DNA of 36,545 nucleotides, taken from IMG/VR virus record IMGVR_UViG_2585427736_000013. The stretch is one strand, 5' to 3'. Position 1 is the stretch's first letter. Every line of letters begins with the position of its first letter. The DNA is from a virus (Duplodnaviria; Heunggongvirae; Uroviricota; Caudoviricetes). Positions 1,472-19,592 of the stretch are shown here, one piece after another. The translations under genes and the position numbers were made by a program. The notes below the pieces were generated by a model. That model ran no database searches. It was given only the letters and a program-made list of their open reading frames with translations, and had not been told where the DNA came from.

Positions 1472-1503
1472 AAAAAGAAAACCCGCAGTTTTTACGCTGC
1501 GGG
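1472..1503 (-). terminator. intrinsic terminator at 3' end of hok-like transcript
   Basis: perfect 7-bp stem CCCGCAG/CTGCGGG (1482-1488 / 1497-1503); on the minus strand followed by U-tract (complement of 1472-1481). Confidence 0.55.
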
Positions 1504-1595
1504 CTTGTTGTTCACGTCAACTGGAAATAGGGTGCCTTTTCGACCTTTACCCTGGCAACCGATTGACGGGGGATTGCTCCCCCGTCGCGGTTTCC

Positions 1596-1736
1596 TTACT
1601 GCTTACACTGTAAGAACGCCGCAAACTCCGCTCCCCAGAAGCTCATCCGTATTTCACACAGCGAACCGTGCAGCATCCAGATGATGAGGATTGCCGTCAC
1701 GCAGAACGTGATGGCCGTAAGCGATTTTTGCGACAT
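1596..1736 (-). CDS. hok: Hok/Gef-family type I toxin (46 aa), not in ORF track
   Basis: Hand translation of minus strand: MSQKSLTAITFCVTAILIIWMLHGSLCEIRMSFWGAEFAAFLQCKQ; single hydrophobic helix, SLCE motif and AAFLxCK tail resembling HokA-type peptides; AAGGAG Shine-Dalgarno about 8 nt upstream of ATG (rc of 1734-1736). Confidence 0.7.
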   Translation of the reverse strand: MSQKSLTAITFCVTAILIIWMLHGSLCEIRMSFWGAEFAAFLQCKQ

Positions 1737-1866
1737 AGCGCTTGCTCCTTTGTTGGAGAGGCGCTAACCTACGACTTGCGAAGGTTGTATGGTCAGGGCC
1801 TCGGTTAAACAGAAATGTTTTCCGGGGCCTTTCCACATCCGGCCTTCGGGTATTCCCTCCGACCAT
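1654..1866 (-). CDS. mok: mok-like overlapping reading frame (70 aa)
   Basis: ORF-track frame starting upstream of and overlapping the hok-like ORF out of frame, the arrangement of mok/hok loci; low-complexity product. Confidence 0.45.
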   Translation of the reverse strand: MVGGNTRRPDVERPRKTFLFNRGPDHTTFASRRLAPLQQRSKRYVAKIAYGHHVLRDGNPHHLDAARFAV

Positions 1867-1926
1867 CAGCCGAAAGGCACCCGCGTGTAATCTATCGCTT
1901 TTTTGTTAATCCGGCAATTCTGCCCG

Positions 1927-2187
1927 TTAATTCTGAGGTAAAGGCAAGCTCATCTGATTGTTTCCCCTGTGCGAAGCTGGCAGTTCATGCCACGGGATAC
2001 CTTCTGAAGAGTGAACGCCGGAGGCGTGTTTCGATGTGAATTTATGGAAAGCTTCCAGTGTTGAGAAGCATACGCCGCATTCCAGGTTGTTACACTGGTA
2101 ATACTTTTGCCGCACGGTGTTTGAATCATTTTCCGGACGACTGGTGCGGATACGGGCAGATGCGCCACAAAGCGGACAACGGAACAT
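1927..2187 (-). CDS. ogr: late gene transcriptional activator, Ogr/Delta zinc-finger family
   Basis: 86-aa ORF MFRCPLCG...QCNNLECGVCF with the four-Cys arrangement and N-terminal sequence of P2 Ogr. Confidence 0.9.
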   Translation of the reverse strand: MFRCPLCGASARIRTSRPENDSNTVRQKYYQCNNLECGVCFSTLEAFHKFTSKHASGVHSSEGIPWHELPASHRGNNQMSLPLPQN

Positions 2188-2229
2188 AGCGACCTCCCTT
2201 AACGTGGTGCTGCCGCTATTCTAAGTTGC

Positions 2230-3330
2230 TCACTCTGTTTCTGCTATCCATTCCGGGATTTTTGCCTCAAGCTCAAGCTGCGTGGTAAAGCCGCTGTTAT
2301 CAATGGTGTGCTCGGCTTTTGCAATGATCCAGTCCTGATTATCAATCTCGCTTTTAAATCCTGTTACCGCACCATGCATTTCGGGGTAGAGTTCTGCGCG
2401 TCCACGTGCCAGTGTGATGGAGAACGCTGCGGCTCCGCGTTGTAGCTGCTGCCACTTTGCCGCTGCTGCGCGTCTTGCTGCCTGCTCGTTCTGATAAGTC
2501 TTGCGTAATACAAACACATTGCCTTCCGCGCCTTCCATATAATCACCTTCACGGCTGCTGCTTTTCTCTTTTTTCGGTTTGCGGCGTTTCACGCTGACTT
2601 TTTTCTTTTTCCCGTAATTAAGATCAAGCCAGTAAGCGCGTACCCCCGTATACGCTTCGCGGTCAGCAATGCGGAACTGATGGCGATCGCCGCTGCTGCG
2701 TGTGATGGCGAACGATGGCAACGGCTGGCCCAGTGCGTTCACGCCACCGCCTGGCATGATGAATAACAGATTACCGCTTTTTACCGTGGTGATTGCGCCC
2801 AGCATTTCCGCCATGCGCGTAAGGAAGGACATGTCGCTTTCTTCGGTCTGGTCGGCGTGGTCGATTTCGATATCCATCAGCATTTCGCTGATTTGCGGTT
2901 TCAGACCGTACCGATGAGCGATGGCAGATACCACGCGCTCAACGGTCACATCATGCCAGGACACCTCACGTTTAACGTTAAATTCATCCCGAAAATCTGC
3001 GCTTCTGGCTGAAACAGTCAGCCTGTCCGGCGGTCCTTCGTGAGCGATTTCATCAACAATGTAAGTGCCTTTTTCTGTCAGCGGTTCCCCTTTCCAGCCA
3101 ATGAGAACCGTCAGACGCGCGCCCCGTGGCGGTAGCTGCAACTGACCATCCGCATCATCCAGCGTGATGGTGAGCTGGTCCGCCTCAAATCCCCGGTTGT
3201 CGGTCAGTGACAGGCTCATCAGGCGCTCTGCCACGCCTGACAGCGCTTTACCCTCCGCAAGAATATCAAAATCCGGCATTTTCACGGGGTCTGTGCCCTG
3301 ACTGAGCAATTGCATGGTGGTGTCGGTCAT
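2230..3330 (-). CDS. D: phage tail protein D (late control gene D family)
   Basis: ORF-track frame 2230..3462; start placed at ATG (rc of 3328-3330, MTDTTMQLL) preceded by GGGAGGG; gpD-like sequence over about 366 aa. Confidence 0.88.
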   Translation of the reverse strand: MTDTTMQLLSQGTDPVKMPDFDILAEGKALSGVAERLMSLSLTDNRGFEADQLTITLDDADGQLQLPPRGARLTVLIGWKGEPLTEKGTYIVDEIAHEGPPDRLTVSARSADFRDEFNVKREVSWHDVTVERVVSAIAHRYGLKPQISEMLMDIEIDHADQTEESDMSFLTRMAEMLGAITTVKSGNLLFIMPGGGVNALGQPLPSFAITRSSGDRHQFRIADREAYTGVRAYWLDLNYGKKKKVSVKRRKPKKEKSSSREGDYMEGAEGNVFVLRKTYQNEQAARRAAAAKWQQLQRGAAAFSITLARGRAELYPEMHGAVTGFKSEIDNQDWIIAKAEHTIDNSGFTTQLELEAKIPEWIAETE

Positions 3331-3487
3331 CTGTTCCCTCCCTGTGCGGCATGGTCGCATGTGCGTGCGGAGGGGGTTACTGCTTTTTGTTGTCGCCGTG
3401 GCGGGAGAACGGCGCAGGGGGGAGATTACGCGCGTGGTGGGTGATGATTGTTGCCGAATCATTTAACGGATACAAGGGGCTGAAGCT
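3331..3487. promoter_or_regulatory. divergent intergenic region between D (minus) and FI (plus); presumed late promoters
   Basis: 157-bp non-coding gap between two divergently oriented essential tail genes; T/G-rich element followed by G-runs at 3382-3422. Confidence 0.35.
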
Positions 3488-4672
3488 ATGAGTGAAACTC
3501 GTTTTCATGGTGCCCGTGTTACGGAAAATACCGACCTGGTAACAGCGATTAACGATGTTGATTCCAGCGTTATCGGTATCGTGGCAACGGCGGATGATGC
3601 GGACGCGAAGCTGTTCCCGCTGAACAAGCCCACACTGCTGACCCGCGTCAATGACGTGCTGGGGAAATGCGGGACAACGGGGACGCTTTATCGTGCGCTT
3701 AAGGCCATCGCAGACCAGGTGAGCACAAAGGTGATCGTCGTTCGCGTGGCTGAACACAAAGAAGAAGACGGAAAGACGCAGGATCAACTGGTTATCGGTG
3801 GTTCTGAGGATGACGGCAGCTATACGGGAATGTATGCGCTGCTTGTTGCAGAGCAGGATGAAAGCATCGGATACCGTCCGCGTATTCTGGCCGCGCCGGA
3901 GCTGGACACGGAGGCGGTGACAAAATCCCTGTGCGTGATTGCGGGTAAGCTGCGCGCGTTTGTGTATGCCTCATGTCATGGCTGTAACACGATGGCAGAG
4001 GCAATTACCTACCGCCAGAAATTCAACGAACGTGAGGTGATGCTCTTATGGCCGGACTTCATCGCCTACAACCCGAAAAGTGGCAAAAACGAAACGTTCC
4101 CCGCGCCTGCTTATGCGTGCGGCCTTCGTGCGTACATTGACCATGAGCAGGGCTGGCACAAATCACTGTCCAACGTTCCGGTTAAAAATGTGCTGGGGAT
4201 GTCCCGGCATGTGTTCTGGTCGTTGCAGGCCGAAGACAGCGATGCCAACAGCCTTAACAACAAAGAAATCACGACCATTATTCGTCGCAACGGGTTCCGC
4301 TTCTGGGGCAACCGCACACCGGAAACGAACGCCTACATCTTTGAGGTGTATACCCGAACCGCACAGGTACTGGCTGATTCAATTGCGGAAGCGCAGTTTG
4401 AAACCATCGACAGTCCACTGACGCCTGCGAACGTGAAGGATGTTATCAGTGCCATCAGGGCAAAACTGGATTCACTGGTTACTGCCGGGAAACTGATTGG
4501 CGCGTCGTGCTGGTATGACGTGGTGGATAACAGCACCACGGATTTACGTCAGGGGCGTGTGCGTATTCGCTACAAATATACGCCTGTTCCTCCGCTGGAA
4601 GATATGGAGCTTTACCAGACGTTTACTGATGAATACTTTGATCCCGCATTTGCGGTGTTGGGAGGTGTCTGA
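3488..4672 (+). CDS. FI: contractile tail sheath protein
   Basis: 394 aa; strong similarity by recall to P2 FI (FPLNKP, RPRILAAPELDT, LRAFVYAS, EQGWHKSLSNV, FRFWGNRT, YTRTAQV, YTPVPPLE motifs). Confidence 0.95.
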   Translation: MSETRFHGARVTENTDLVTAINDVDSSVIGIVATADDADAKLFPLNKPTLLTRVNDVLGKCGTTGTLYRALKAIADQVSTKVIVVRVAEHKEEDGKTQDQLVIGGSEDDGSYTGMYALLVAEQDESIGYRPRILAAPELDTEAVTKSLCVIAGKLRAFVYASCHGCNTMAEAITYRQKFNEREVMLLWPDFIAYNPKSGKNETFPAPAYACGLRAYIDHEQGWHKSLSNVPVKNVLGMSRHVFWSLQAEDSDANSLNNKEITTIIRRNGFRFWGNRTPETNAYIFEVYTRTAQVLADSIAEAQFETIDSPLTPANVKDVISAIRAKLDSLVTAGKLIGASCWYDVVDNSTTDLRQGRVRIRYKYTPVPPLEDMELYQTFTDEYFDPAFAVLGGV

Positions 4673-5184
4673 TGGCTGTACCAAAACATCTTCGCTTTTT
4701 TACGCTGTTTGTGAATGGTGAAAACGAAGTGGGTAAGGTGACGTCCGTCACTCCACCTAAACTGACGCGCAAAACTGAAAGCTATCGTGGCGGTGGCATG
4801 ATGGGGGCGGTGAGTATCGACCTCGGTCTTGATGATTCTGCGCTTGATGCGAGTTTTGTCATGGGGGGCGCAGTTCGTGAGCTGTTCCTTAAATATGGCG
4901 GCACGATTGACGGCACGTTGCTGCGTTTTGCGGGTGAATACTACACCGATGCAGAAAGTGATCTGTATGAAATCGAGATGCGCGGGCGTGTGACGGAAAT
5001 TGATATGGGGGAAGCCAAACAGGGCGAAGCCACATCACACACTTACGCTGTCAAAAACACCTACTACAAGCTGAGCGTTAACGATCGTCCGCTGTGGGAA
5101 ATCGACCTGCTGAACCACATCTACCGGAAGGACGGCAAGGACATCGTGCCTGATCGCATCCGTTCCGCGCTTGGGCTTGGCTGA
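4672..5184 (+). CDS. FII: tail tube protein
   Basis: 170 aa; start ATG overlaps FI stop (TGATG); size and position of P2 FII. Confidence 0.93.
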   Translation: MAVPKHLRFFTLFVNGENEVGKVTSVTPPKLTRKTESYRGGGMMGAVSIDLGLDDSALDASFVMGGAVRELFLKYGGTIDGTLLRFAGEYYTDAESDLYEIEMRGRVTEIDMGEAKQGEATSHTYAVKNTYYKLSVNDRPLWEIDLLNHIYRKDGKDIVPDRIRSALGLG

Positions 5185-5240
5185 TAAGTAATATGCAGGC
5201 GGCGCAGTGCGTCGCCTCTGACTGAAAAAGGAGACAACTG

Positions 5241-5615
5241 ATGCAAAACATCAATACTGAAACCCGGAATAACGCCGTGGCGGATGATGTGACGGCAGGT
5301 GAGGATATGGCTGTCGAACGTGGCGTAAAACTGGCCCGACCAATTGAGCGCGGTGGCGAAAAAATCACGTATGTGGAAATTACCGGGGCTATTGAGCAGG
5401 CTGGATCTCTGCGTGGTCTGTCGCTGTCTGATGTGCTGAATCTGAAAGCGGATACCATGTTCACGCTGTTGCCTCGCGTGACCTCGCCACGACTGGATGA
5501 AGTGATGATTAAAAAAATGTCGTCACGCGATTTTATTCAGTTGTGCGCTGTGGCTGTAAATTTTATGAGCGAGCCAGACTCTGGCGCGAAGAGCGTGCAG
5601 GAGACGGCAGCGTAA
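5241..5615 (+). CDS. E: tail assembly chaperone E
   Basis: 124-aa ORF with AAAGGAGA Shine-Dalgarno; position between tube and tape-measure genes. Confidence 0.85.
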   Translation: MQNINTETRNNAVADDVTAGEDMAVERGVKLARPIERGGEKITYVEITGAIEQAGSLRGLSLSDVLNLKADTMFTLLPRVTSPRLDEVMIKKMSSRDFIQLCAVAVNFMSEPDSGAKSVQETAA

Positions 5616-5779
5616 TCACCCTGGTGTGCTTTGAGCACATCGAAGATCTGGTGGCGGATATTGCCGCCATTTTTAACTGGTCGCCCGCCGAAATCTTCAT
5701 GATGACGCCCGGCGAAGTGGTTAGCTGGCGTGAGCGGGCGGCACTTCGCAGCGGGAATGCAGACAATGAAGACTCTTGA
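5241..5779 (+). CDS. tail assembly chaperone E+E' fusion via programmed -1 frameshift (predicted)
   Basis: -1 frame is open from 5513 (after TAA at 5510-5512) to TGA at 5777-5779 and overlaps the 3' end of E; A7 run at 5511-5517 and T-rich runs at 5531-5534 and 5561-5564 are candidate slip sites; conserved G/GT-type arrangement. Confidence 0.55.
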
Positions 5780-8573
5780 TATCCGGGTCGCTTTCAGCGC
5801 CGTTGACAGACTGACCCGGCCTGCCGAAAACGCCCGCCGCCTGATGGGGCAGTTTGGTGACTCCATCCAGCGAACGCAGGGGGCGATCAAAAATCTCGAG
5901 CGTCAGGCGCGTTCATTTGAGCGCGCCCGTGACGCTGTCAGTAAAGCGGATGCGAGCATCGTGAAAGCACGACGCCAGCTTAACGCCCTTAATCAGTTAC
6001 AACGCACGGGTACAGTGCTCAGCGAAAAACAACAAAAGCTGATGCAGCAGTTAAGCACCCGGCTTGAACGCCTGAATGAATCGCGCACACGGGAAATTCA
6101 GAAAATGCGGGAGCTTGGCGGAGAGCTGAAACGCCACGGCATTTCCCTGACAGGCAGCGATAACACCATCCAGCAGGCCATCAGACGCACCGAACAGTAC
6201 AACAACCAGCTTGAACGCGAACGGCAGACGCTTGCGCGTGTAACGCGGGCGCGTGAGCGGTATTCGCGCGCGCAGGAAACTGCTGGAAAACTGAAAACAG
6301 GTGGTGCGCTGGCAATTGGTGCGGCAGCGGCTGGCGGCTATGCTGCCGGGCGTTTTTTGCAGCCTGCGATCGGGTTCGGGAAAGAGATGTCCCGCGTTCA
6401 GGCACTGACGCGAATCGATCAGAACAGCCCACAGTTTAAGGCGCTGCGTGAGCAGGCGTTAAAACTTGGCTCTGAAACGCAGTTCACCGCAGGCGATGCC
6501 GCCAGTGGACAGGCATTTCTTGCAATGGCTGGCTTCACACCGCAGGCCATTCAGGCTGCGCTTCCGGGCGTGCTGAGCATGGCAACGGCTGGCGGCATGG
6601 ATCTCGGCGAGACGGCGGATATTGGCTCAAATATCCTAACGCAGTTCGGCCTTTCTGCTGACCAGATGGACCGGGTTGGTGACACACTCACCGCAGCGTT
6701 TACCCGTACCAACACTGACCTTCGCGCACTGGGCGAAACCATGAAATATGCAGGTCCGGTGGCGGGTAAGCTGGGAATATCGCTGGAGCAGGCCGCAGCG
6801 ATGGCGGGCGTGCTGGCGAATATGGGTATCAGAGGGAGTGATGCCGGGACGGCAATGCGTGCCAGCCTGGCTCGTCTGGCATCACCGCCAAAGGCAGCAG
6901 CAGAGGCGCTGAAAGAGCTTGGTGTGGCAGTTTCTGACGCGAACGGCAAAATGCGCCCGATGGAGGATGTGCTGGCCGACCTTTATAAAGCCACCCGCAA
7001 ATACGGGGAAGTTGACCGGGTATCCTTCTTTAAGGACATCGCCGGGGAAGAGGCTTTCACATCGTTTATGGCGCTCGTTGATGCAGCGGGTGACGGGTCC
7101 TTACCCAAACTGAGAAAAGAACTTGAAGGCGCGCGCGGTGAGGCTGAACGCACAGCAAAGGTTATGGCCAACAACCTTGACGGCGATCTGAAATCACTCG
7201 GCAGTGCATGGGAAGGGGTGCGCATCCGCATTGCAGATCTGATTGACGGTCCGCTGCGTTCTGTCACGCAGTGGCTCACGCGTGTGGTATCAAAGGTGAC
7301 GGCGCTGGCGCAGGCCCATCCCGCACTGACGCGCCAGCTACTGATAGCAGGCGGTGCGTTGCTGGCAATGACTGCAACGGTTGGCTCGTTGTCGCTGGCT
7401 ATTGGTGTGCTTGCTGGTCCGCTGGCAAAACTGCGTCTTGGTTTTTCCCTCCTGACCGGATCAATGAATGCTGTCAGGGTCCTGCCAGCACTATGGGGAA
7501 TGGTGACGGGTTCCGTTTCTTTGCTGGGAGGTGCTATCGGGGCGCTGTTCAGTCCGGTTGGTCTTATCGTGGCTGCGCTTGCCGGAGCTGCCATTCTTAT
7601 CTGGAAATATTGGGATCCCATCAGGGCATTTTTTGCCGGGGTGTTCGGCGGGATTATGGAAAGGCTGACCCCGTTGCGCGAAACCTTTGAACGGTTTGGC
7701 CCTGTTTTTGACGTAATCGGAAGCGGGATCAGCCAGGTGTTTAACTGGTTTAAATCGCTGCTGTCACCGATGGAGTCCAGCAAGGAAACGCTGGATAAAT
7801 GTACCAGTGCTGGCGAGATATTCGGTAACGTTCTTGGTGGCGCGTTACAGCTTGTTCTGACGCCTGCAAAAATGTTGCTGGATACGCTGGCGTGGATACT
7901 TGAAAAACTCGGTGTGCTTCCGGATGAAGCGGAAAGGGCGAGAAAGAAAATCGAAGACGCACAGCGTGCGGCCATTCTTCAGGATAAGGTTGCTCTGTTT
8001 CAGGGAGACATTGCGAAAATCAATCCGCCGAAGTCTGCGGAAAATGGCAATGGCACCGGAGGCGATAAACCCAAAGACAACAAACCGCTCACAGACAGCA
8101 ATACCGGTACGCTACGCAGACTCAGCAAGATTGCTGATAACACAGGTAAGCTGGTTGATGAGACGAAAAAACGCATTGGCCCTGGCGATATTGTCTTTAA
8201 GAACCTGCCCCGCGCACTTGCTGTTCGTGGGGAGTGGCAGGAGCGGAAGATTGCGCAGGTCAGTAAGCCTGCCCCCGCAATTAAGATCACACCCGTGGTC
8301 CCGGCTCCGCTGCCTCCGGCGCTGGTCCCTGTTGTTACGGCCAGCTCCCGCCCAGTGGCGGAGGCCATACGATCGCCAGTGGCATCAGTTCCTGCAACTT
8401 CCCGTAACCGGGAGCCTGTTGCCTCCGGATTTGGCGGTGAAATTCATGTTCATCTGCATAACGTTGTTACGCAGAATCCCCGCGAACTGGCGAAACTGGT
8501 CGGTGAAATGGTCAGGGCAGAAATGGAACGGCGCACCCGTGCCGGGCGTGGCAGTTTTTACGATAAAGATTGA
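5766..8573 (+). CDS. T: tail tape measure protein
   Basis: Long ORF (track 5730..8573) with coiled-coil N-terminus, Ala/Gly-rich transmembrane-like central segments; start ambiguous between GTG 5730, ATG 5757 and ATG 5766. Confidence 0.9.
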   Translation: MKTLDIRVAFSAVDRLTRPAENARRLMGQFGDSIQRTQGAIKNLERQARSFERARDAVSKADASIVKARRQLNALNQLQRTGTVLSEKQQKLMQQLSTRLERLNESRTREIQKMRELGGELKRHGISLTGSDNTIQQAIRRTEQYNNQLERERQTLARVTRARERYSRAQETAGKLKTGGALAIGAAAAGGYAAGRFLQPAIGFGKEMSRVQALTRIDQNSPQFKALREQALKLGSETQFTAGDAASGQAFLAMAGFTPQAIQAALPGVLSMATAGGMDLGETADIGSNILTQFGLSADQMDRVGDTLTAAFTRTNTDLRALGETMKYAGPVAGKLGISLEQAAAMAGVLANMGIRGSDAGTAMRASLARLASPPKAAAEALKELGVAVSDANGKMRPMEDVLADLYKATRKYGEVDRVSFFKDIAGEEAFTSFMALVDAAGDGSLPKLRKELEGARGEAERTAKVMANNLDGDLKSLGSAWEGVRIRIADLIDGPLRSVTQWLTRVVSKVTALAQAHPALTRQLLIAGGALLAMTATVGSLSLAIGVLAGPLAKLRLGFSLLTGSMNAVRVLPALWGMVTGSVSLLGGAIGALFSPVGLIVAALAGAAILIWKYWDPIRAFFAGVFGGIMERLTPLRETFERFGPVFDVIGSGISQVFNWFKSLLSPMESSKETLDKCTSAGEIFGNVLGGALQLVLTPAKMLLDTLAWILEKLGVLPDEAERARKKIEDAQRAAILQDKVALFQGDIAKINPPKSAENGNGTGGDKPKDNKPLTDSNTGTLRRLSKIADNTGKLVDETKKRIGPGDIVFKNLPRALAVRGEWQERKIAQVSKPAPAIKITPVVPAPLPPALVPVVTASSRPVAEAIRSPVASVPATSRNREPVASGFGGEIHVHLHNVVTQNPRELAKLVGEMVRAEMERRTRAGRGSFYDKD

Positions 8574-8579
8574 GGAGTC

Positions 8580-9074
8580 ATGGCCATGATGATGATCTAC
8601 GGCATGTTTGTTTTTGAGCTGCGCACATTGCCGCATCAGCAGTTACAGCAAAACAAAAGCTGGCGGCATGTGAAAAATGAGCGCGTTAACCGTTCAGCAA
8701 GCTGGCAGTATATCGGTGCAGGTGATGATCGCGTCGTTCTTTCTGGTGTGCTTTATCCTGAAATCACAGGTGGCGAAGTGTCCCTGTCGCTGCTGACCAC
8801 GCAGGCGTATACAGGGCGCCCCTGGCCTCTGATTGATGGCGTCGGGCAGATTTACGGCATGTATGTTCTGACTGACACAAGTACGACCCGCTCCGAGTTT
8901 GATCGCTATGGCAAGGCAAAAAAGATAGAGTTTTCACTGACCCTTGACCGCTGTGATGAGGATTTGCGGGAGCGCCTGCAATCCTCATCGTTCAGCGATA
9001 TGCTGACTGGCTTCAAAGATAAGGTAACCTCGTCTTTAAATAGCGTGGCTAACTCAGTTCATAGTTTATTTTAA
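8580..9074 (+). CDS. U: tail protein U
   Basis: 164 aa, GAGGAG Shine-Dalgarno; gpU-like sequence (SWRH, VLSGVLYPEITGG, IDGVGQIYGMYVLTD). Confidence 0.9.
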   Translation: MAMMMIYGMFVFELRTLPHQQLQQNKSWRHVKNERVNRSASWQYIGAGDDRVVLSGVLYPEITGGEVSLSLLTTQAYTGRPWPLIDGVGQIYGMYVLTDTSTTRSEFDRYGKAKKIEFSLTLDRCDEDLRERLQSSSFSDMLTGFKDKVTSSLNSVANSVHSLF

Positions 9075-9096
9075 AGAGTTTAATTTCTTGTGATAA

Positions 9097-9120
9097 ATGG
9101 TCCGTAACATATCGGACCAT
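9097..9120. promoter_or_regulatory. 8-bp inverted repeat immediately downstream of U
   Basis: ATGGTCCG-taacatat-CGGACCAT; no T-tract, so terminator or operator role is unresolved. Confidence 0.3.
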
Positions 9121-9150
9121 TCAAGCACATTACATGTTGGTTCCATCTTA

Positions 9151-9179
9151 TTGAATACATCCAGTAGCCACAATATAAT
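9151..9179 (+). promoter_or_regulatory. sigma70-like promoter upstream of acetyltransferase gene
   Basis: TTGAAT (9151-9156), 17-bp spacer, TATAAT (9174-9179) in an AT-rich leader. Confidence 0.5.
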
Positions 9180-9255
9180 TTCTTGAGAGTTCATTACACA
9201 CCCAGTCAGATTAACACCCCATTACATTGTAAGTGATAATGCAGAGATTAAATTC

Positions 9256-9798
9256 ATGGATATAAAAACATTAAAGGAGTGTATAAAAATAGAAGTTATA
9301 GGCGGAAACCATGAGTTTTCATGGAGAAAAGCTTTAACTCGCACCAGACGCAATAGGCGAAAACACTTTATGTTTTGGTGGCGAGTGGCCAGCTATCTAT
9401 ACAGCAGAGGAGGGTTCATGCGCCGGGTGGGCAAACGCATCGGAGCAAACCTTCATCGCGATTATAATGTTGAGATTCCTTTAACAGTGAGTATAGGGCC
9501 AGGCTTAGATATTGCTCACTTATCAGGTATTGTTATTACAGAAAACTGTGTGATAGGGAGAAATCTACATATAAAGCAAGGTGTTACTATTGGTCTAAGA
9601 ACCCCTTCCAATGAGGCAATGATTACTATTGGAGATAATGTTGATATAGGTTGCAATTCATCTATCCTTGGTGGGCAAGTTAATATCGGTGATAACGTTA
9701 CGATAGGTGCTCATGCTCTGGTAACAAAATCTATTCCTTCCAACTCAATATATATAAACGAAATAACTCCCGTTATAAGACAAAAAAAGGCGCAGTAA
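9256..9798 (+). CDS. hexapeptide-repeat (left-handed beta-helix) acetyltransferase, cargo gene
   Basis: 180 aa with repeated [LIV]-G-x-x-x-x hexapeptide units (IGPGLDIAHLSGIVITENCVIGRNLHIKQGVTIG...); visibly AT-rich relative to flanking phage genes. Confidence 0.8.
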   Translation: MDIKTLKECIKIEVIGGNHEFSWRKALTRTRRNRRKHFMFWWRVASYLYSRGGFMRRVGKRIGANLHRDYNVEIPLTVSIGPGLDIAHLSGIVITENCVIGRNLHIKQGVTIGLRTPSNEAMITIGDNVDIGCNSSILGGQVNIGDNVTIGAHALVTKSIPSNSIYINEITPVIRQKKAQ

Positions 9799-9809
9799 GC
9801 GCCTTTTTT
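9788..9809. terminator. bidirectional intrinsic terminator between acetyltransferase and G
   Basis: A7 - GGCGC - agtaa - GCGCC - T6; acetyltransferase stop codon lies in the loop, G stop (rc of 9809-9811) abuts the T-run. Confidence 0.7.
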
Positions 9810-10384
9810 CATGGTTGCTCTGGCCAATCAATATCGGTGGTATTTTCTGGTTGAATACGATTCACCAATACACGGTACTTCTTCCAGCGTGTCAAGTTTA
9901 TCTTTTCGTCTTCTGTCGCTATATCTAAATCAACAGCGTCCTGCAAAGTAGCAATGATCTTACTCGCATAAGCGATTTGTTCTCTCTTCTGAGATTCGGC
10001 GGCTCTGACAAGTGCATCACGCTCTGCATTCTCATCATTCACCCACGCATTTCCGTTCCATTTCTGATAATCCCCCTCCGGGGAAATGGCTGTCACGTCT
10101 GGAGGTAATGCGCCAAGTTCAGAAATATAAATGGCTGCTCCTGTTTTCGTTTCATAGACGGTCTTTCCGCGATGGTCTTCCATCAGTTCCCATTTCATTT
10201 CATCTGCATTGAAAACGGCTGCATAACCAGCAGGAATATCAGGTGGTGCAATATCTGTACTGTTTGCTGGCAGACCTGTATACGGTGGAATATACGCTTC
10301 ACTTTCCCCAATAAATTCATTGGTTCCATCAAGTAAATTAAATACGCGGATAGTTTGTGCTTCTGCACTCATTCTGAAAGCCAT
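9809..10384 (-). CDS. G: tail fibre assembly chaperone
   Basis: 191 aa; Tfa-like N-terminus ([13 protein letters not shown]...); start overlaps stop of H. Confidence 0.88.
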
Positions 10385-12171
10385 TATGCAAGCCTCACAA
10401 TATAGTTAAATGCGATGTTTTTTACGGTATTTTCTGTATTACCTGTAGCATTAACGGTAATAGAGTGCCCGTGTGAGCCAATAGCAACCGTGTGTGAATG
10501 TGCACCAATACCAACAGTATGGTTATGTGCTCCAATGTTGACTGTATGTGCATGATTGCCTGATGAACTTGTAGTCGTAGCACCTTTATCACTTCGCGGA
10601 ACACCATAATCTGCACCGCCTGATTGCACGCTCACAGCAAAACCGACGGTATGTGTATGATTGCCAGAAGTATTGGTTGATTTTGTGCCGTGGTTAAACG
10701 TACTGACTGTTTTTGTCCCGTAATCAAATGAACTGGTCGTTTTCGTTCCTAAGTCCGTATTTGACGCACTGGCGCTGTGAGTATGCGATTTAATCCCGTC
10801 CTGTTCCTGAGACAATACGGCCCGACCAGTGGCGGGTTTTCCTTTGATTGTCCAGCCACGCATATCAGGGAGCACACCAGAGGGATAAGCTACTGCAAGT
10901 TTCGGGTATGCTGATTTGTCAAAAGCCTGCCCCACCATGATAGCGTAACCGTCAGGCGGCGTATCTGACGGCCACGGCAGAGGTATTCCCGGTGGTAATG
11001 CTTCAATTCCCTTTGTGCCATCAAAAGCAACACCACTGATGGGGTGTGCTGTTTCCAGTTTACTTGCAGATACTGCGTTACCTGTTGCGGATAATGCGCC
11101 AATATCCTGCACTGTGGGCTTGTTTTTATCCGTGTAAGTGCGGTACCAGATGGTTTTTTTTCCCTTGTCCAGTATCACCCCGGTAAATTGTGCCCGGTGT
11201 TCTTTTGTGGTCGGATCTGAATCTTCCAGCCCTGTGGTGATCCTGACTATTCCGCCGATGATTTCGCCAAACACTTCAATCAGGCAGCCGCCCAGGCCGA
11301 TATCACCGTACCCCGTGTCAGTAAGCACGCAGTGCTGTGACAGCGAAATATTAGCCCTGAATATCCAGCTCCCTGTTCTGAAGGCGCCACGCTCATTCAG
11401 CCACTCCACGAATTGTTCCGTTGTCCAGCGTTGTCCTGCTTTACCTATGTACCCGTTTTTTGCATAAACGCGTGGTGTGCCCACGTTGATCAGGAACAGC
11501 TCCTTGTTGGGGATGTCCTCACCATTGCGGTTTTTCGCAAGCCGACCATCAGCGTTGTCCATGGCGATCTTTATGGCCTTTGGCGTGGCTGCCCGGGTCT
11601 CTGATGTACTGGTGGTGTCGCTGCTTAACTGAGTAAAACCTTTTGTGGTCAGCGAGGCATCCGGGTGACGTCGTGACTGTTCATGCTCTTTCAGTTTGTC
11701 ATCCACGTAATCCACTGTGGCCATCACCATGGTGTTATCCACGGTAAGCGCCACGGTGGCAGTGCTGGATACGGTCAGAATGGTGCGAAATGTTTGTGCA
11801 CGTCCGGACCCTTCGGCAACGGTTGGTTTGTAACTTTCGGCAGTATTGCCCACCGCGATTAAATCGCCGTGCTCATCAAATACACCAATTTCCCGGATCC
11901 AGAATCCGCCCGTTTCAGGAGGAATAACCAGCTCCGCAATAATGCGGTTCTGATGTGTTGCGTCCAGGATGACGCGATTAACAGTGTTTCGCCACACCTC
12001 ATGCACCAGACGGATCTGCTTACTGTCTGGTGTGGGCAACGTGCCGCCACCGTCGCCCACGGCCATATGAGTCAGGCGGACAGGCTTACCATCTGGCGCG
12101 GCTGCCTGAGCTAATTTTTTTGCACCCGTATCGGTGATAACGGTTTTAAATTTTCGTGTTGTGGTACTCAT
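10384..12171 (-). CDS. H: tail fibre protein
   Basis: 595 aa; N-terminal region like P2 H ([43 protein letters not shown]); C-terminal region with repeated GNHxHTV / HxH motifs. Confidence 0.9.
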
Positions 12172-12173
12172 GC

Positions 12174-12704
12174 TTAATCGCCTGGATAAATGGTAATAAC
12201 TTCACCGTCATAAGTTGCCGCCGCTGCGAAAATATCCCCCGGAATTTCCTGAATGATATTCAGCCCTGTCATGTGGCGGCTGACCGGGCGGGCATCAGCA
12301 ATCAATCGCTCCATTTCCAGATACATTTCCTCCGTCACGCCACTGTCCAGCGTGCCGACTTCAACGGTAAATGTTCCCGGTTCTCCGCCGAACTCCCACC
12401 ACTCAGACACGCGAATGAGGTATCCCAGCGGCTCAATGGCCCGGCGCAGTGCGCTGATGGTCCCTTTGTGTCGGTGTATCAGCCATGCATCACGAATAAC
12501 CTGTCGCTTTGTCTCTTCCGGCCAGTTGCGATCCCAGCGGTCAACGGAAAATGCCCAGGCGAGATAAGGCAGCAGATGCACCGGGCAGGTGTCCGGCGAC
12601 CACAGCGTGTTGAGGTCTACCGGGATGTCTGTAATGCGCGCTCCGACAGCTTCGGCACAACGCATGAAATTGCTGGCTGATGGCGGTAACAGTGAATTAC
12701 TCAT
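12174..12704 (-). CDS. I: baseplate assembly protein I
   Basis: Track frame 12174..12737; start moved to ATG (rc of 12702-12704) with AAGGTGGG Shine-Dalgarno and ATGA-type overlap with J stop, giving 176 aa. Confidence 0.88.
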
Positions 12705-13593
12705 TACGCCCACCTTCGCTGATGGTGAATGACTCACAGCGCGCCGCTTGTATGTCGCTGATGGCCATATTCTGTGTAGGTTCGATTATCTCCACGCGTT
12801 GCACACCGTGCACATGCAGTGCGGCAGCAATGGCGGACAACGCCACGTCCTGACCGATAAGCCCCTGCTCAGCCAGCCACTTCCTGAACGACGATTCAGC
12901 CGCAGCCAGAATAGGTTCGGATTCCGGACCGGGGTAAAAGTACAGTTTTGCATTCAGCCGCCATGTCACGATGCTGGCGCTCTGTACGGTCAGGCGGTCG
13001 GCCACCGGGCGGGTATCCTCTGCATTCAGAACGGCGCGAACGGTATTAAGCAACGCCTCCGTTGCTGTGCCGTCGCCTTTAGTGGACAGAATGGAAACCG
13101 TCACATTTGCCGGAGACGGACTGATAGCCCGCGCATCACGCACCAGACCGCTGGCGCTGCGGGCAAAATACTCGTATGCACCTGACGGGCCAGCAACACT
13201 CAGGCCGTCGTACGCCCGCTGCGCCCGCAGTCTCAGCGAGGTGTCGCTCTCCATCACCGCGTCGGTGGTATCCGTTGCCGGAGTGATAACCAGGCGCTTT
13301 GTGTTCATATTGCCCGCGAGGTTGTCCAGGTCTGTCCCGGCGCTGTGGCTTAACATGCAGGCGCGTGCACCCTCATTGACCCGCTGGCGTAACAGCATTT
13401 CACGAAACGCTGTTGTCTGGGCGATAACGTTCAGTGGTTCCGATTCCAGCTCCAGCGCGGCGGAGACGGCTTCACGCTGTTCGGCGGGATAAGCCGCAAT
13501 CATCATGGCCTTTGTGTCAGCCAGAATTGCCTCAAAGTCAGGCTCCGCGATGATGGCGGGGTCCGGTAACTGTGAAAGGTCAACGGCGGGCAT
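12697..13593 (-). CDS. J: baseplate wedge protein J
   Basis: 298 aa, position and size of P2 J. Confidence 0.88.
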   Translation of the reverse strand: MPAVDLSQLPDPAIIAEPDFEAILADTKAMMIAAYPAEQREAVSAALELESEPLNVIAQTTAFREMLLRQRVNEGARACMLSHSAGTDLDNLAGNMNTKRLVITPATDTTDAVMESDTSLRLRAQRAYDGLSVAGPSGAYEYFARSASGLVRDARAISPSPANVTVSILSTKGDGTATEALLNTVRAVLNAEDTRPVADRLTVQSASIVTWRLNAKLYFYPGPESEPILAAAESSFRKWLAEQGLIGQDVALSAIAAALHVHGVQRVEIIEPTQNMAISDIQAARCESFTISEGGRNE

Positions 13594-13596
13594 GAT

Positions 13597-13947
13597 TTAC
13601 TCCCTTAGCGTGATGGTTAATTCAACATTCTGCATGGTCTGCATGACAGTGCCCGACAGCGTCACCCCGGCGCGGCCTCCCGCTTTCCAGACAACGTCGA
13701 TGGCATCCAGGGCAATGCGGGGTTCCCATCGTGTCAGCGCAATCACGGCAGCACTCATGCATTGCAGACGCGTGGTGTTATTCATGGGTTCGTCAATCAA
13801 ATCAGGCACAAGGCTGCCATATTCCCGTCGCATAACCCGGCTTGCCAGCGGGGTGGTCAGGATGTCCCTGACTGACTGTTTCAGGTGCTCCATATCGTTC
13901 AGGTTTCCCGTCCCGTCCGGATTCATTCCTGTGTAGCGGGTTGTCAC
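13597..13947 (-). CDS. W: baseplate protein W
   Basis: 116 aa, position and size of P2 W. Confidence 0.85.
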   Translation of the reverse strand: MTTRYTGMNPDGTGNLNDMEHLKQSVRDILTTPLASRVMRREYGSLVPDLIDEPMNNTTRLQCMSAAVIALTRWEPRIALDAIDVVWKAGGRAGVTLSGTVMQTMQNVELTITLRE

Positions 13948-14525
13948 TGCGGGCCTCCTGTCGAATCGCTGCCGCCTTTCACGCCACCGTGTTTATGCGT
14001 ATGCACGGTAATGCCGTTTGAGGTGAAGTTGCCGCCGCTGTGCGTGATATTGCCGCTCATCTTTCCTCCTTTTGTGACGTCAAGCGTCGCCGTTCTCAGA
14101 AGGTTTGTGCATTCCACGACGGGCGTATCCAGTTTCACGCTGACGGATGCCTGCAAAGTGGCCGTTTTCATGCCGCTGGCGCTCAGTGCGCCTGCGTCTG
14201 CGTCGTAGCGGAACACCGCGCCATCCGGCGCGCTGACCACGATTTCTTTCAGGCTTTTGCCGGGGGCCGGACTGGCATCACTCCACAGGCTGCCAATTAT
14301 CATGGCGGTTTCCGGGTTGCCGCCAATGCAGGCAATTACCACCTGTTCGCCTGGTGATGGCGGCAGCCACACATTGAAGGCCCCCGCGCGCGTGGTGTTC
14401 CAGCGCAACCAGCCTGTTTCCAGTTCGCCGCTGCGAACGCGCACGCGCCAGGACTTCTCATCAACTTCAGAGATGATCCCGGTGCGGATGATATTGCTCA
14501 GCAGTCGCATGAGTTCTGCGCTCAC
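13944..14525 (-). CDS. V: baseplate spike/hub protein V
   Basis: 193 aa, overlapping stop/start with W and S. Confidence 0.85.
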   Translation of the reverse strand: MSAELMRLLSNIIRTGIISEVDEKSWRVRVRSGELETGWLRWNTTRAGAFNVWLPPSPGEQVVIACIGGNPETAMIIGSLWSDASPAPGKSLKEIVVSAPDGAVFRYDADAGALSASGMKTATLQASVSVKLDTPVVECTNLLRTATLDVTKGGKMSGNITHSGGNFTSNGITVHTHKHGGVKGGSDSTGGPQ

Positions 14526-15166
14526 CGTACAGCCTCCGCAATCCGGCCCAGCACCGTGTTATAAATCAGGCGCTCATCTGCCTGGCTGATACCCAGCAGC
14601 TCACGTACCGGGTAATCGGTGAAAATGCCCGGCGCAACCTGATCGCGCTCACCGAACTGATGAACGCGGGCAATACGTGCGGCCACGCCGCTGTAACCCA
14701 CCGTCACACCGGAAGTATCTGCACGGGCTTTCAGGTAGCGGGCGGTGCGCAGTTTTACGAACATGGGGACGCGCTTTGTGCTGTCCTGGTTGATGCGCCG
14801 GGTGCGTATTTCCAGAAAGCGGTCGATGTCATCCCGGTAAAACGTGCGGATATTGTTTTTATCCTCATCCCACCCGGTAATGGTTCGCCCGTATTTCCCC
14901 GTGTCGTGATGCCAGTTTTTCAGCGTGCGTGCTTCGTTATTCCAGATAAAGCGAATGCGTTCCTGTATCCGGGTTACGCGGCGTCTGCGTGGTGTCCACG
15001 CGGTCCCGTCCGGCGCTTTCTGTGATCGGATACGCGCCTGCTGGGCGCGGCGTAAATCCTGTGCCAGCTTTCTGGCGATGTTATTGATGGCCTGCTGATT
15101 CAGGCTGTCGCGGATGGCCTCAAAGGTTTCATCCACGCGGGTGAATGTCTTATCCATCGCTTTCAC
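14522..15166 (-). CDS. S: tail completion / virion morphogenesis protein S (start uncertain)
   Basis: Frame between R and V; 214-aa longest ORF is longer than P2 S, true start may be internal. Confidence 0.65.
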   Translation of the reverse strand: MKAMDKTFTRVDETFEAIRDSLNQQAINNIARKLAQDLRRAQQARIRSQKAPDGTAWTPRRRRVTRIQERIRFIWNNEARTLKNWHHDTGKYGRTITGWDEDKNNIRTFYRDDIDRFLEIRTRRINQDSTKRVPMFVKLRTARYLKARADTSGVTVGYSGVAARIARVHQFGERDQVAPGIFTDYPVRELLGISQADERLIYNTVLGRIAEAVR

Positions 15167-15617
15167 CCCACGTCACATCCTGGAATACATGCGACCAGTC
15201 GCCTTCGGAAGAGGGCAGACGGGGTTTTGGCTCCGGCAGGTGTTCTGCCTGCGGTGTGCCCTGACTGTTGCGCGTGATGCGAACGCGTTCCCGCAGGGGG
15301 AGCGTAAACAGGAGATCGGCGCTGTCATCGTCATTGATAACGGCGGAAAATTTGATGTCCTGATTACGCTCCGGATTGAGCAACAACTGTGGCTGATTTT
15401 CGGATAACCACGCCAGCAGCGGTAGCGTGAGGTCGTCCAGCTCTCCTGCGTAATCCATGACAAACATCACCATCTGATAGCGGTAAACAAACGAGGGCGT
15501 TTCTCCGGTCGTTTCAATGTTGCCGCTCTCCACGAAAATGGTGAATTTTTCCGGGTTAGCCTGACACCATCGGCATGAACGGGTCATGGCTTCACGCAGG
15601 GAATCAGTTTTCAGCAT
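15150..15617 (-). CDS. R: tail completion protein R
   Basis: 155 aa, same length and position as P2 R. Confidence 0.85.
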   Translation of the reverse strand: MLKTDSLREAMTRSCRWCQANPEKFTIFVESGNIETTGETPSFVYRYQMVMFVMDYAGELDDLTLPLLAWLSENQPQLLLNPERNQDIKFSAVINDDDSADLLFTLPLRERVRITRNSQGTPQAEHLPEPKPRLPSSEGDWSHVFQDVTWGESDG

Positions 15618-15924
15618 GGTTGTTGTCCTTGTTGTTCAGTCGTTGCAGCCTGCGCTGTTCCAGTAATTCAATGGCCCGTTTATCCGAGTTACAGGTTTCC
15701 AGTGCATCCAGAAGGCGGTCGCCCCATATACCGAGATTTCCCCATGTGGGAGTATCAGGGAAGGGGGGAGGCGTTACCGGTATGGTCAGCGTCTGTGGTA
15801 TAAGCCGGACTGACGGCGCTGGCAGTGGCGCGTTCTGCGTGCCTGCGCAACCTGTCAGTAAAACGAGCGTCAGGCAAAGCGTGGGCGCATTCATCTTTTG
15901 CAATATCGTTGCGTAGCTGTTCAC
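15604..15924 (-). CDS. o-spanin lipoprotein (LysC/Rz1-like), partly embedded in lysB
   Basis: Out-of-frame overlap with 3' half of the i-spanin ORF; lipobox LTGC after a hydrophobic segment; Pro-rich periplasmic part; start is GTG 15924 (with GGAGAGG) or ATG 15894. Confidence 0.65.
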   Translation of the reverse strand: MNSYATILQKMNAPTLCLTLVLLTGCAGTQNAPLPAPSVRLIPQTLTIPVTPPPFPDTPTWGNLGIWGDRLLDALETCNSDKRAIELLEQRRLQRLNNKDNNHAEN

Positions 15925-16162
15925 GTCTGGCCTCTCCGTCCTGATTTCGTTGTTGATTTTCCACGCGGAGTTGCGCCAGCACCTGCTGCATATCCTGTAC
16001 CCCGGTGCTGATGATATTCAGGGTGTCGACGGTACTTTTCAGGGCGCTGGCCTGCGCTTCGTTTCTGGCGTTCTCCCGGCCCAGCGACCACGACAGACGC
16101 ATGGATGTTCCCCATGCGGCAATCAGAAGGAAAGCGACGCCCAGCGTGGGCCAGAGCTTCAT
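15755..16162 (-). CDS. i-spanin (LysB/Rz-like)
   Basis: Start placed at ATG (rc of 16160-16162, MKLWPTLGVAFLLIAAWG) overlapping endolysin stop; N-terminal TM then coiled-coil-like domain. Confidence 0.7.
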   Translation of the reverse strand: MKLWPTLGVAFLLIAAWGTSMRLSWSLGRENARNEAQASALKSTVDTLNIISTGVQDMQQVLAQLRVENQQRNQDGEARREQLRNDIAKDECAHALPDARFTDRLRRHAERATASAVSPAYTTDADHTGNASPLP

Positions 16163-16551
16163 GCCGGATAGGCTCCGTGTGGTAACTGAAAATGTGGTCC
16201 GTCTTTCAGGGTCTTCCAGTCGCCGCCCCATTCCACCGGAATATTCAGTTCCCGGCTGGCCTGTCTGAATGCTGCTGCGATTTTTTCGTACAGCGGCCAT
16301 TCCCATGACACCTGGCTGCCGATATAAGCCACAACATCCACGGCATGCCCCGTAAGGTGGCGGCTGTTCATGGTCTGGCTCTTACCCGTGGCCACAAGTT
16401 GCTTCTGGCGGTAACGGCTGCGCAACCCTTCGGTGATACCAAAATCCACTTCCGAGATTTCCAGTGCCCGTCGGGTCACTTTCACCAGATCAGGATTTAC
16501 GCCCTGCAAATTCTTTTCGCTCCGGCTGCTGAATTTAAATGTGTTGCTCAT
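16159..16551 (-). CDS. endolysin, peptidase M15 (VanY-like D-Ala-D-Ala carboxypeptidase fold)
   Basis: 130 aa with SRHLTGHAVDV and DGPHFQLP zinc-ligand-like motifs; position of the endolysin in the lysis cassette. Confidence 0.75.
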   Translation of the reverse strand: MSNTFKFSSRSEKNLQGVNPDLVKVTRRALEISEVDFGITEGLRSRYRQKQLVATGKSQTMNSRHLTGHAVDVVAYIGSQVSWEWPLYEKIAAAFRQASRELNIPVEWGGDWKTLKDGPHFQLPHGAYPA

Positions 16552-16871
16552 TCGTCCTTCTCCTTCACCCTGCGATTAAAGGCCGCAATAACCTTGTCGC
16601 GTGCTTTCTCTGCACCCATAAAACCGATTGATGCGCCGATAAACGTCACGGCATCTTCAGGAAACCCGAAGAAGCGCAACGACCCGGCCACGGCCATGGC
16701 GAGAACGCCGCACGCCAGCGATCCCGTTACGGTCTGAACCAGTGTTCGTCCGTCATAAAGACTCATCAGCGCGGAAATGCTGACCGCCGCGCCTACTGCA
16801 TACACCGTTGGCAGGTGGTCAAAGAGCCATGCAATAACCTGCTCTGTGATCCCTGTTTGAATGGTGTTCAC
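16548..16871 (-). CDS. holin (predicted, three hydrophobic segments)
   Basis: Track frame 16548..17090; start placed at GTG (rc of 16869-16871) preceded by GGGGGAG just after X stop; charged C-terminal tail. Confidence 0.55.
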   Translation of the reverse strand: MNTIQTGITEQVIAWLFDHLPTVYAVGAAVSISALMSLYDGRTLVQTVTGSLACGVLAMAVAGSLRFFGFPEDAVTFIGASIGFMGAEKARDKVIAAFNRRVKEKDE

Positions 16872-16873
16872 TG

Positions 16874-17577: not shown

Positions 17578-17670
17578 TCCTGAAAAAAATCGGGCGGTGG
17601 GTGCGCGGTGTAAACGGTCACGGAGTCAAACCGGAACACCGCGCACGCCGCCCGCTGACGGGGTCAGTCG

Positions 17671-19569: not shown

Positions 19570-19592
19570 AAAAAATTTGCTCCTTTGTCTTA

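Follow-up and report, generated by a model that had tools for sequence, protein, structure and literature searches.

The inverted FI-to-U tail block of a P88-type prophage is a normal layout among P2 relatives, with a predicted Ogr-type site shared by FI and D

The tail genes FI, FII, E/E′, T, and U of the Escherichia coli prophage analyzed here lie on the plus strand, with ogr, D, and the genes for the fibre and baseplate on the minus strand. This order, inverted relative to that of P2, is neither a recent event nor an error of assembly but the standard, fixed layout in a very large P2-related group made up of P88-like phages and their relatives. We regard it as very probable that an old inversion became fixed in the P88-type lineage and in a larger enterobacterial clade, with an Ogr site serving both pF and D. 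The window (the whole stretch of DNA analyzed, 36,545 nt) is an E. coli prophage adjoining serS, with flanking DNA that matches E. coli. In blast comparisons with P88 (NC_026014, genus Xuanwuvirus), 80% of the prophage was covered at 96% identity (∼77% overall), collinearly and in one orientation, with the D/FI junction inside a single alignment block (1472-9059). By ICTV convention, members of a genus share nucleotide similarity of ∼70% or more over the genome with the type phage; the similarity of the prophage to P88 exceeds this value, and the window also has the gene order of the Xuanwuvirus type genome, with ogr and D pointing away from FI to U. The prophage is accordingly a P88-type member of the genus Xuanwuvirus in the family Peduoviridae.

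Pfam and PHROG searches recovered a complete P2-type contractile tail module, consisting of FI, FII, E with its −1 frameshift product E′, T, U, and D. On the plus strand, the tail sheath gene FI (3488-4672; phrog_23, 2.5e-127; Phage_sheath_1) is followed by the genes for the tail tube FII (4672-5184; PF04985 Phage_tube, 7e-46), the tail assembly chaperone E (5241-5615; phrog_103, 2.6e-36), the tape measure protein T (5730-8573; phrog_28, 5e-216; PhageMin_Tail), whose start may be the ATG near 5758, and the tail protein U, the last of the inverted block (8580-9074; PF06995 Phage_P2_GpU, 1.2e-38). The E′ extension (5558-5779, +), a −1 frame ORF entered by a −1 frameshift at the slippery sequence A_AAT_TTT (5558-5564), overlaps the start of T. 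On the minus strand, D, encoding the late control D/tail hub protein (2230-3330; Phage_GPD; phrog_52, 2e-164), has ogr 42 nt downstream (1927-2187), which specifies a phage-encoded zinc-finger late activator of the Ogr/Delta family (Pfam PF04606 Ogr_Delta, 5.1e-14, above the cut-off; phrog_603). The same strand carries the baseplate/fibre operon, which ends with the tail fibre assembly gene G (9809-10384; Caudo_TAP, 1.8e-37; phrog_105) and includes the tail fibre gene H (10384-12171; Phage_tail_fib, Collar), as well as I, J, W, V, S, and R through O; P and Q are on the plus strand.

We placed the start of D at the ATG at 3330, which is preceded by GGAGGG and agrees with the P88 annotation, so that the gap between the divergent D and FI genes measures 157 bp (3331-3487), the length originally predicted. 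A longer, 410-aa ORF (2230-3462) was rejected as D, since its first 44 codons span the control region and are absent from the P88 annotation. Gene identities and strands bear out the original prediction that FI to U are inverted relative to P2, and the P2 order given there (F-E-T-U-D co-directional, then ogr) agrees with the P2 record. With FI to U on the plus strand and D, ogr, and V to G on the minus strand, the module departs from the canonical P2 operon structure; cotranscription of D with U is precluded, and D needs a promoter of its own, as had been reasoned from the strands.

The same D/FI junction is present in 1109 of 5426 complete E. coli genomes (≥80% coverage), i.e., about one in five. 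The layout is also annotated in P88, described in PMC5285337 as a functional, induced, and lytic phage, and in the Citrobacter phage phiSM, which is functional, forms plaques, and lysogenizes (PMC6456863). Novemvirus phiT5282H, Reginaelenavirus 3LV2017, Reipivirus ST16-OXA48phi5.4, and Serratia phage KSP20 share the junction. Two surveys covered the best 80 of 423 relatives among GTDB species representatives and the best 80 of at least 586 relatives in IMG/VR, a sample in which the boundary between the inverted and canonical clades is thinly represented. Inverted loci numbered 58 of 80 in the former (26 named Enterobacterales genera) and 80 of 80 in the latter. In the 58 inverted GTDB loci, D was at least 60.6% identical to the window D, whereas the remaining 22 (D identity of 53% or less) had the P2 order; FI and U identities divided the two sets in the same way. 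All 138 surveyed loci with a D at least 60% identical to that of the window were inverted. The arrangement is no anomaly and is not particular to this genome: it recurs in P88, phiSM, the E. coli genomes, and four ICTV genera, and the synteny comparison proposed as a check identified it as the norm in close relatives. The inverted arrangement itself is the reference state of a very common prophage family, and we found no explicit account of the inversion in the literature on P88, phiSM, Xuanwuvirus, Peduoviridae in combination with inversion, or the Xenorhabdus xnp1 cluster. In genome scans, departure from the P2 order here does not warrant a flag as a rearrangement or an assembly problem.

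The split observed in the surveys is consistent with a single ancient inversion of the pF-FI..U block that has stayed fixed since, and from it we infer a single origin; more than one inversion, or a reversion, may also have occurred. In this scenario, the block consisting of pF, FI, FII, E/E′, T, and U, situated between the fibre genes and D, would have turned around in one ancient event, with one breakpoint lying upstream of pF and the other precisely where U meets D. As a result, the FI..U operon converges on the V..G operon, with the variable cargo slot (Z/fun in P2) at the point of convergence, closed by a bidirectional terminator. D, followed by ogr, would have become a separate short transcription unit, placed back to back with pF.

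More than a plain junction separates U from the fibre genes: the intervening slot (9075-9808) accommodates a cargo gene and a bidirectional terminator. Just past U, a stable hairpin without a U-tract (9096-9121, +; −18.2 kcal/mol, z = −4.8) precedes a gene for a hexapeptide-repeat O-acetyltransferase (9256-9798, +; Hexapep; GC content of 0.39), regarded as a moron. The best NCBIfam matches of its product were EpsC, CysE, and WcaB, every one below the cut-off, and a promoter scan returned sigma-70-like matches ahead of it at 9151-9179 and 9211-9240. Between the convergent acetyltransferase and G genes lies a bidirectional intrinsic terminator of the form A7-GGCGC-loop-GCGCC-T6 (9783-9809), with folding energies of −15.2 (+) and −18.0 (−) kcal/mol and z scores of −4.5 and −6.3, respectively. 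The contents of the slot differ among relatives, and searches of the complete E. coli genomes and of the surveyed GTDB species-representative loci yielded no match to the acetyltransferase cargo. Knowing that this slot, flanked by U and the fibre genes, is the equivalent of the Z/fun position of P2 helps to locate morons and defence genes in this group.

The D/FI gap contains a single TGT-N12-ACA-like dyad, a predicted Ogr-type activator site of sequence TTGTTGT-N12-AGAAC (3387-3410; core TGT-N12-AGA at 3391-3408, centered at 3399.5). In Ogr/Delta-activated late promoters, a dyad of this kind lies ∼55 nt upstream of the start and is accompanied by a −10 but a poor −35. The consensus of Ogr sites is TGT-N12-ACA (PMC3931495, which also gives the P2 operon structure), and the core in the gap has one mismatch to it. 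Exact matches to this P2 consensus in the window (6, below chance) included none in late control regions, and the dyad search was relaxed because this lineage uses TGT-N12-AGA here. An exact copy of TTGTTGT-N12-AGAAC in the divergent O/P gap (20498-20521, centered at 20510.5) served as a comparator; there, −10-like hexamers occur at 44 to 45 nt on both the P side (TAATCT) and the O side (CATCAT). These two gaps are the only places in the window with the exact motif, which was derived from the same two regions, so that its shuffle statistic is not independent of them. A third candidate (16070-16093, −), with 2 mismatches and located inside the spanin gene, is probably a chance match. In the D/FI gap, putative −10 hexamers flank the dyad symmetrically at 44 to 49 nt from its center, namely, GATGAT for pF (3443-3448, +) and GACCAT for the D promoter (3351-3356, −). 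Transcription is accordingly predicted to start at ∼3455 (+) for FI and at ∼3344 (−) for D, and Ogr bound at about −55.5 would most likely activate both promoters. The D-side hexamer is a weak −10, and the predicted D leader is only ∼14 nt long, including the SD sequence.

Within the same clade-wide layout, D could instead rely on an independent promoter (e.g., a constitutive sigma-70 promoter) or on a second activator site. The weakness of GACCAT and a conserved GC-rich element (CGCGCGCG) on the D side, at a distance of 27 to 38 nt from the dyad, would be compatible with this alternative. A generic sigma-70 and terminator scan, with overall output near shuffle expectation, returned nothing on either strand of the gap; this result can be read in the same direction but is also that expected if the promoters are activator dependent. 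Comparative evidence renders an independent D promoter unlikely. First, the gap holds just the one dyad, and such a dyad (≤1 mismatch) is found in the D/FI gaps of 54 of the 58 inverted GTDB loci among the best 80 relatives surveyed; the other 4 carry TGT-N12-AGG or TCT-N12-AGA variants. Second, in the 54 distinct site-anchored sequences obtained after adding the window, a hexamer with A2/T6 lies exactly 44 to 49 nt from the center on the D side in 48 cases, against 1 of 13 canonical-order loci on the mirrored side of pF (neither count is weighted for phylogeny). The D-side hexamer thus keeps A2/T6 at the mirrored spacing even though the gap sequences are otherwise highly diverged. Third, P2 offers a precedent of one site for two divergent late promoters: in its RefSeq record, a single feature is labeled "activator binding site; pO, pP promoters," and each of the two mapped starts lies 56 nt from the center of that site. 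Finally, D in P2 is a late structural protein, required at the same time as FI to U.

The preferred reading, a shared site, is that D probably has its own late promoter and uses the activator site of pF. The divergent late promoters postulated originally are retained in this reading, yet they would not be wholly new, since pF was carried along when the block moved, and it is the pF site that D appears to use, much as pP and pO of P2 share one. For the inverted clade as a whole, we consider it rather likely that D-ogr is driven by a fifth late promoter and that the pF dyad was recruited bidirectionally as a second pP/pO-type design; a description of a fifth late promoter at D was not found in the literature. 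Comparison of the 54 diverged D/FI gaps thus leads to the prediction that FI and D are transcribed divergently under the control of one Ogr-type site, which would extend the pP/pO design and explain the viability of a 5.7-kb inversion that cuts D off from its operon. If so, the ability of Ogr sites to function in either orientation would have made the inversion tolerable, D-ogr would be a short Ogr-activated unit, and the defence/moron hotspot would now be convergent and terminator bounded.

The inversion could also be reversible, with a phage DNA invertase flipping FI to U and both orientations present in the population, given that an invertase gene lies right beside U in P88, P884B11, and phiSM. 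We attach hardly any credence to this possibility. The window has no invertase, and the acetyltransferase gene occupies that slot; the 138 related loci all show one orientation; and the reversible inversion observed in P88-type prophages concerns the tail-fibre H/Mup49-S segment, not the sheath block (bioRxiv 10.1101/2022.05.07.487787). Inverted repeats on either side of the block might have revealed how the inversion came about, but a search for them yielded weak pairs only (the best of 27 to 30 nt with 73 to 74% complementarity, inside genes); these are at chance level, so the mechanism is not readable from the sequence. The block therefore lacks both the adjacent serine invertase and the flanking crossover repeats that define Gin/Cin/Hin-type invertible segments. 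An assembly artefact, i.e., FI to U flipped by the assembler in a genome that is truly in P2 order, stems from prior expectation based on P2 only, with nothing in the sequence pointing there, and is dismissed on account of the identical junction carried by 1109 independently assembled complete E. coli genomes, by the genomes of isolated phages such as P88, P884B11, and phiSM, and by about 138 additional loci, the collinearity with P88 across D/FI in one block, and a conserved symmetric promoter architecture of the gap that is sensible in this orientation only. Of the two options initially put forward, evolved rearrangement with divergent late promoters or misassembly, only the former holds.

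The closest known systems are P88 and its relatives P884B11, Citrobacter phiSM, 520873, 503458, PhiR44_2, Chuche, and 500465-2, all with the same divergent ogr-D and FI-U layout. The D/FI gap of this group is also 157 bp, with 3 base differences in 237 nt compared, and it agrees with the window exactly in the activator-site motif and in both −10 hexamers. Differences from P88 concern the U-fibre slot (acetyltransferase in the window; in P88, an invertase together with an alternative fibre segment), the tip of the fibre, the gene for tail fibre assembly, the Phd/Doc pair beside Q, and the immunity and integrase end. In Novemvirus, Reginaelenavirus, Reipivirus, and Serratia KSP20, D and FI likewise diverge, U points toward the fibre genes, and a dyad is present in the gap; their junctions are 67 to 72% identical in nucleotide sequence, with gaps of 108 to 157 bp, and their cargo differs from that of the window (none, or DUF262 and others). 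The P2 F operon (pF: FI FII E E′ T U D, then ogr) comprises the same genes in the same internal order, with protein identities of ∼45 to 55% (52% for D), and has in common with the window the E/E′ −1 frameshift device, an Ogr-type activator, and a dyad ∼56 nt upstream of the FI start, which in the window is a predicted one. In P2, however, D ends the operon, overlaps U by one base, and is co-directional, as are all these genes, with V to G, whereas the window has pF-FI..U in inverted orientation and convergent with G, and D forms a unit of its own. The P2 pP/pO region resembles the window D/FI gap in that a divergent gap, ∼155 bp long, holds one dyad, with −10-like hexamers 44 to 49 nt from its center on either side. 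The shared-site design is annotated in P2 at P/O only, whereas in the window sequence comparison predicts it at D/FI as well.

Gene calls from a six-frame ORF list and PHROG and Pfam scans of the window placed the tail genes FI (sheath; 3488-4672), FII (tube; 4672-5184), E (5241-5615), T (tape measure; 5730-8573), and U (8580-9074) on the plus strand, together with a hexapeptide acetyltransferase gene (9256-9798), P, and Q. The minus strand carries ogr (1927-2187), D (2230-3330), G (tail fiber assembly; 9809-10384), H (fiber; 10384-12171), and, beyond H, I, J, W, V, S, R, the lysis genes, L, M, N, and O. These are the strands given in the original prediction, and the P2 order that it used as reference agrees with the P2 RefSeq record (V W J I H G, Z/fun, pF-FI FII E E' T U D, ogr, all co-directional). 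A -1 frameshift at A_AAT_TTT (5558-5564) gives access to E', whose end at 5779 lies within T; annotated P2 uses the same device, and the tail genes of the window are ordinary members of a P2-type module. Mechanical calling extended the D ORF to 3462, but the P88 annotation uses the ATG at 3330, with GGAGGG just upstream, which makes the D/FI gap 157 bp long, as had been predicted. The ORF finder thus over-extended D (2230-3462) in the same way as the GenBank record of Serratia phage KSP20, where D is an over-long ORF overlapping FI. In Citrobacter phage Shae_phiSM (phiSM; OR565851.1, 2294-4745) the product names are shifted, D being labeled "ogr/Delta-like zinc finger family protein" and the sheath "late control gene D protein."

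The flank at residues 1-1293, which carries host serS (TIGR00414, 8e-185), matches most E. coli genomes at ≥99% identity, and an integrase gene runs off the opposite end. Phage P88 aligned in a single orientation over 80% of the prophage at 96% identity, in large blocks at 1472-9059, 11569-23832, and 24840-32249, the first of which is unbroken over ogr, D, the D/FI gap, and the whole of FI to U. This alignment and the serS flank identify the window as a P88-type (Xuanwuvirus) E. coli prophage, and it qualifies as such on the tests applied. The immunity/early-left region and integrase (32250-36545) gave only short blocks at 93 to 94% identity, with 75% at the integrase end, so the immunity/integration module differs from that of P88. 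A Hok/Gef-type locus lies between serS and ogr, a setting found in 316 complete E. coli genomes. The segment 23833-24839, absent from P88, holds a variable slot beside the portal gene Q with a Phd-like antitoxin (118 aa) and a Doc/Fic toxin (135 aa) at 23907-24670. A ParM-type actin-like segregation protein gene (25552-26511), common to this P2-like prophage and P88, where a small partner ORF accompanies it, suggests that plasmid-like maintenance may be an option.

The original prediction proposed a synteny comparison with relatives, and this comparison established the inverted order as the norm, also beyond the closest relatives. A 10.5-kb region is collinear at 93 to 97% identity in P88, P884B11, phiSM, 520873, 503458, PhiR44_2, Chuche, and 500465-2, and the P88 and phiSM annotations give the same strands as the window. 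P88 is described as obtained by induction (PMC5285337), and phiSM formed plaques and lysogenized K-12 (PMC6456863); the inverted layout is therefore functional. A 1,161-bp D/FI junction probe matched 1,109 of 5,426 complete E. coli genomes (coverage of ≥80%, identity of ≥95%). In O157:H7 genomes (e.g., NC_011353.1 2517337-2518264, H135) the junction is kept while the D match ends at query position 234, which suggests a truncated D within a degraded P88-type prophage. Matches at 67 to 72% identity, each with the two sides of the junction together at one site, came from Enterobacter phage phiT5282H (Novemvirus), Klebsiella phages 3LV2017 (Reginaelenavirus) and ST16-OXA48phi5.4 (Reipivirus), many Kp48xx phages, and KSP20, in whose record a gpD-like and a gpFI-like gene diverge.

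We further scanned one genome per bacterial species in GTDB with an alignment of six D proteins and positioned FI, FII, T, U, D, and ogr by tblastn in the best 80 matches. FI adjoins D divergently, with U at the far end, in 58 of these 80 loci, which span 26 named Enterobacterales genera, including Salmonella, Serratia, Edwardsiella, Erwinia, Pantoea, Klebsiella, Xenorhabdus, Photorhabdus, Providencia, Morganella, Hafnia, and Yersinia; the other 22 have the P2 order. Gene order and protein similarity split these 80 loci exactly: D and FI are 60.6 to 97.8% and 54 to 98% identical to those of the window in inverted loci, versus at most 53.2% and 49.9% in canonical loci, which are nearer to P2. 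In IMG/VR, all of the best 80 matches (D, ≥69% identical) were inverted. This distribution is consistent with a single old inversion that a large clade has inherited. One GTDB match, on a 226-kb contig labeled Vagococcus sp. WN89Y (NZ_JBQPOM010000071.1), is a P88-type prophage with a D 98% identical to that of the window; in a supposedly Gram-positive host, it probably reflects contamination or a mislabeled assembly. Our literature search found no paper explicitly commenting on the inversion or on a D promoter. The gene order, correctly observed in the original prediction, was nonetheless already known, from the KSP20 GenBank record and the reference genomes of four ICTV genera, and is clade typical.

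A programmed flip of FI to U by a DNA invertase could be invoked since P88 and phiSM carry such a gene directly beside U, but this explanation fails: the window has no invertase, the block lacks meaningful flanking inverted repeats, its orientation was identical in all 138 surveyed loci with a D at least 60% identical to that of the window, and the reversible inversion of P88-type prophages concerns the tail-fiber segment (bioRxiv 10.1101/2022.05.07.487787). Misassembly, one of the two origins originally envisaged, is excluded by the same junction in many independent genomes.

The slot between U and G, by position the P2 Z/fun slot, now lies between two converging operons because FI to U are inverted. 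Its content varies among relatives: an invertase and alternative fiber segment in P88 and phiSM, DUF262 in ST16-OXA48phi5.4, nothing in phiT5282H and 3LV2017, and glycosyltransferase, macro-domain, DUF3800, SIR2, or SEC-C proteins in E. coli genomes. In the window (9075-9808), it holds a hexapeptide-repeat O-acetyltransferase moron (GC, 0.39), apparently with its own promoters, as two predicted sigma-70-like matches precede the low-GC gene. A stable hairpin without a U-tract follows U (9096-9121), and an A7-GGCGC-loop-GCGCC-T6 hairpin, with good folds on either strand, separates the acetyltransferase gene from G exactly where the two converge. The best family matches of the protein are EpsC/CysE/WcaB-like, all under their cutoffs, and megablast with its DNA found no match in the 5,426 complete E. 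coli genomes or the 80 GTDB loci; the gene may serve lysogenic conversion by modifying surface polysaccharides.

Since D cannot be read from FI to U, the D/FI gap (3331-3487) must drive it. In P2, Ogr activates the late promoters from a dyad whose consensus is TGT-N12-ACA (PMC3931495). The exact consensus was not found in the control regions of the window. TTGTTGT-N12-AGAAC occurs exactly twice in the whole window, in the D/FI gap (3387-3410) and the O/P gap (20498-20521), a descriptive count rather than an independent test, the pattern having been derived from these gaps. An independent test came from 54 distinct D/FI gaps (the window and inverted GTDB loci, four more of which have variant half-sites, e.g., TCT-N12-AGA in Providencia): when the 54 were anchored on the dyad, information peaked on both flanks at positions 45 and 48-49 from its center, corresponding to a hexamer xAxxAT at 44-49 (GATGAT, GATTAT, GAATAT, and similar on the FI side; GACCAT, AATCAT, AACTAT, GATCCT, and similar on the D side). 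On the D side, 48 of 54 gaps have A as the second and T as the sixth base of the hexamer at the exact spacing, whereas in 13 canonical-order control loci, in which the stretch upstream of pF need not drive any gene, the mirrored position is -10-like in one (Fisher P = 4e-8, counting sequences as unrelated). From the dyad center at 3399.5, we predict a pF -10 at 3443-3448 (GATGAT) with a start at ∼3455, and a minus-strand D promoter with a -10 at 3356-3351 (GACCAT), a start at ∼3344, and a leader of ∼14 nt that would include the Shine-Dalgarno sequence. The D/FI gaps of related loci also conserve a GC-rich element (CATGCGCGCGCG / CACGCGCGCG) 27 to 38 nt from the dyad center on the D side (window, ∼3362-3372; locus L005, 3040-3060), with a similar CGCGCGCG on the P side of the window's O/P site, and GCGTGA at 19 to 24 nt on the FI side; these elements may serve as a -35 region or as an additional protein contact.

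The O/P gap has matching geometry, with TAATCT at 44 (P side) and CATCAT at 45 (O side). The predicted pO start (∼20455) lies downstream of 20462, the first ATG in the O (scaffold) ORF, and this geometry indicates that O probably starts ∼33 nt further in, at the second ATG (∼20429), as annotated in P88.

Co-directional FI to U and D is the sole defining feature of the P2 F operon lacking in the window, as it is across the inverted clade. The originally proposed evolved rearrangement with divergent late promoters is supported, with the refinement that, judging from sequence, pF and the D promoter probably share one activator site; this predicted shared-site D promoter is the only new element. 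P2 pP and pO offer the precedent: in the RefSeq record, divergent starts at 3016 and 3127 flank one single feature, "activator binding site; pO, pP promoters," whose core (TGT-N12-CCA) is centered at 3071.5, 56 nt from either mapped start, with one hexamer per side (GAAACT and TAGCCT) 44 to 49 nt out.
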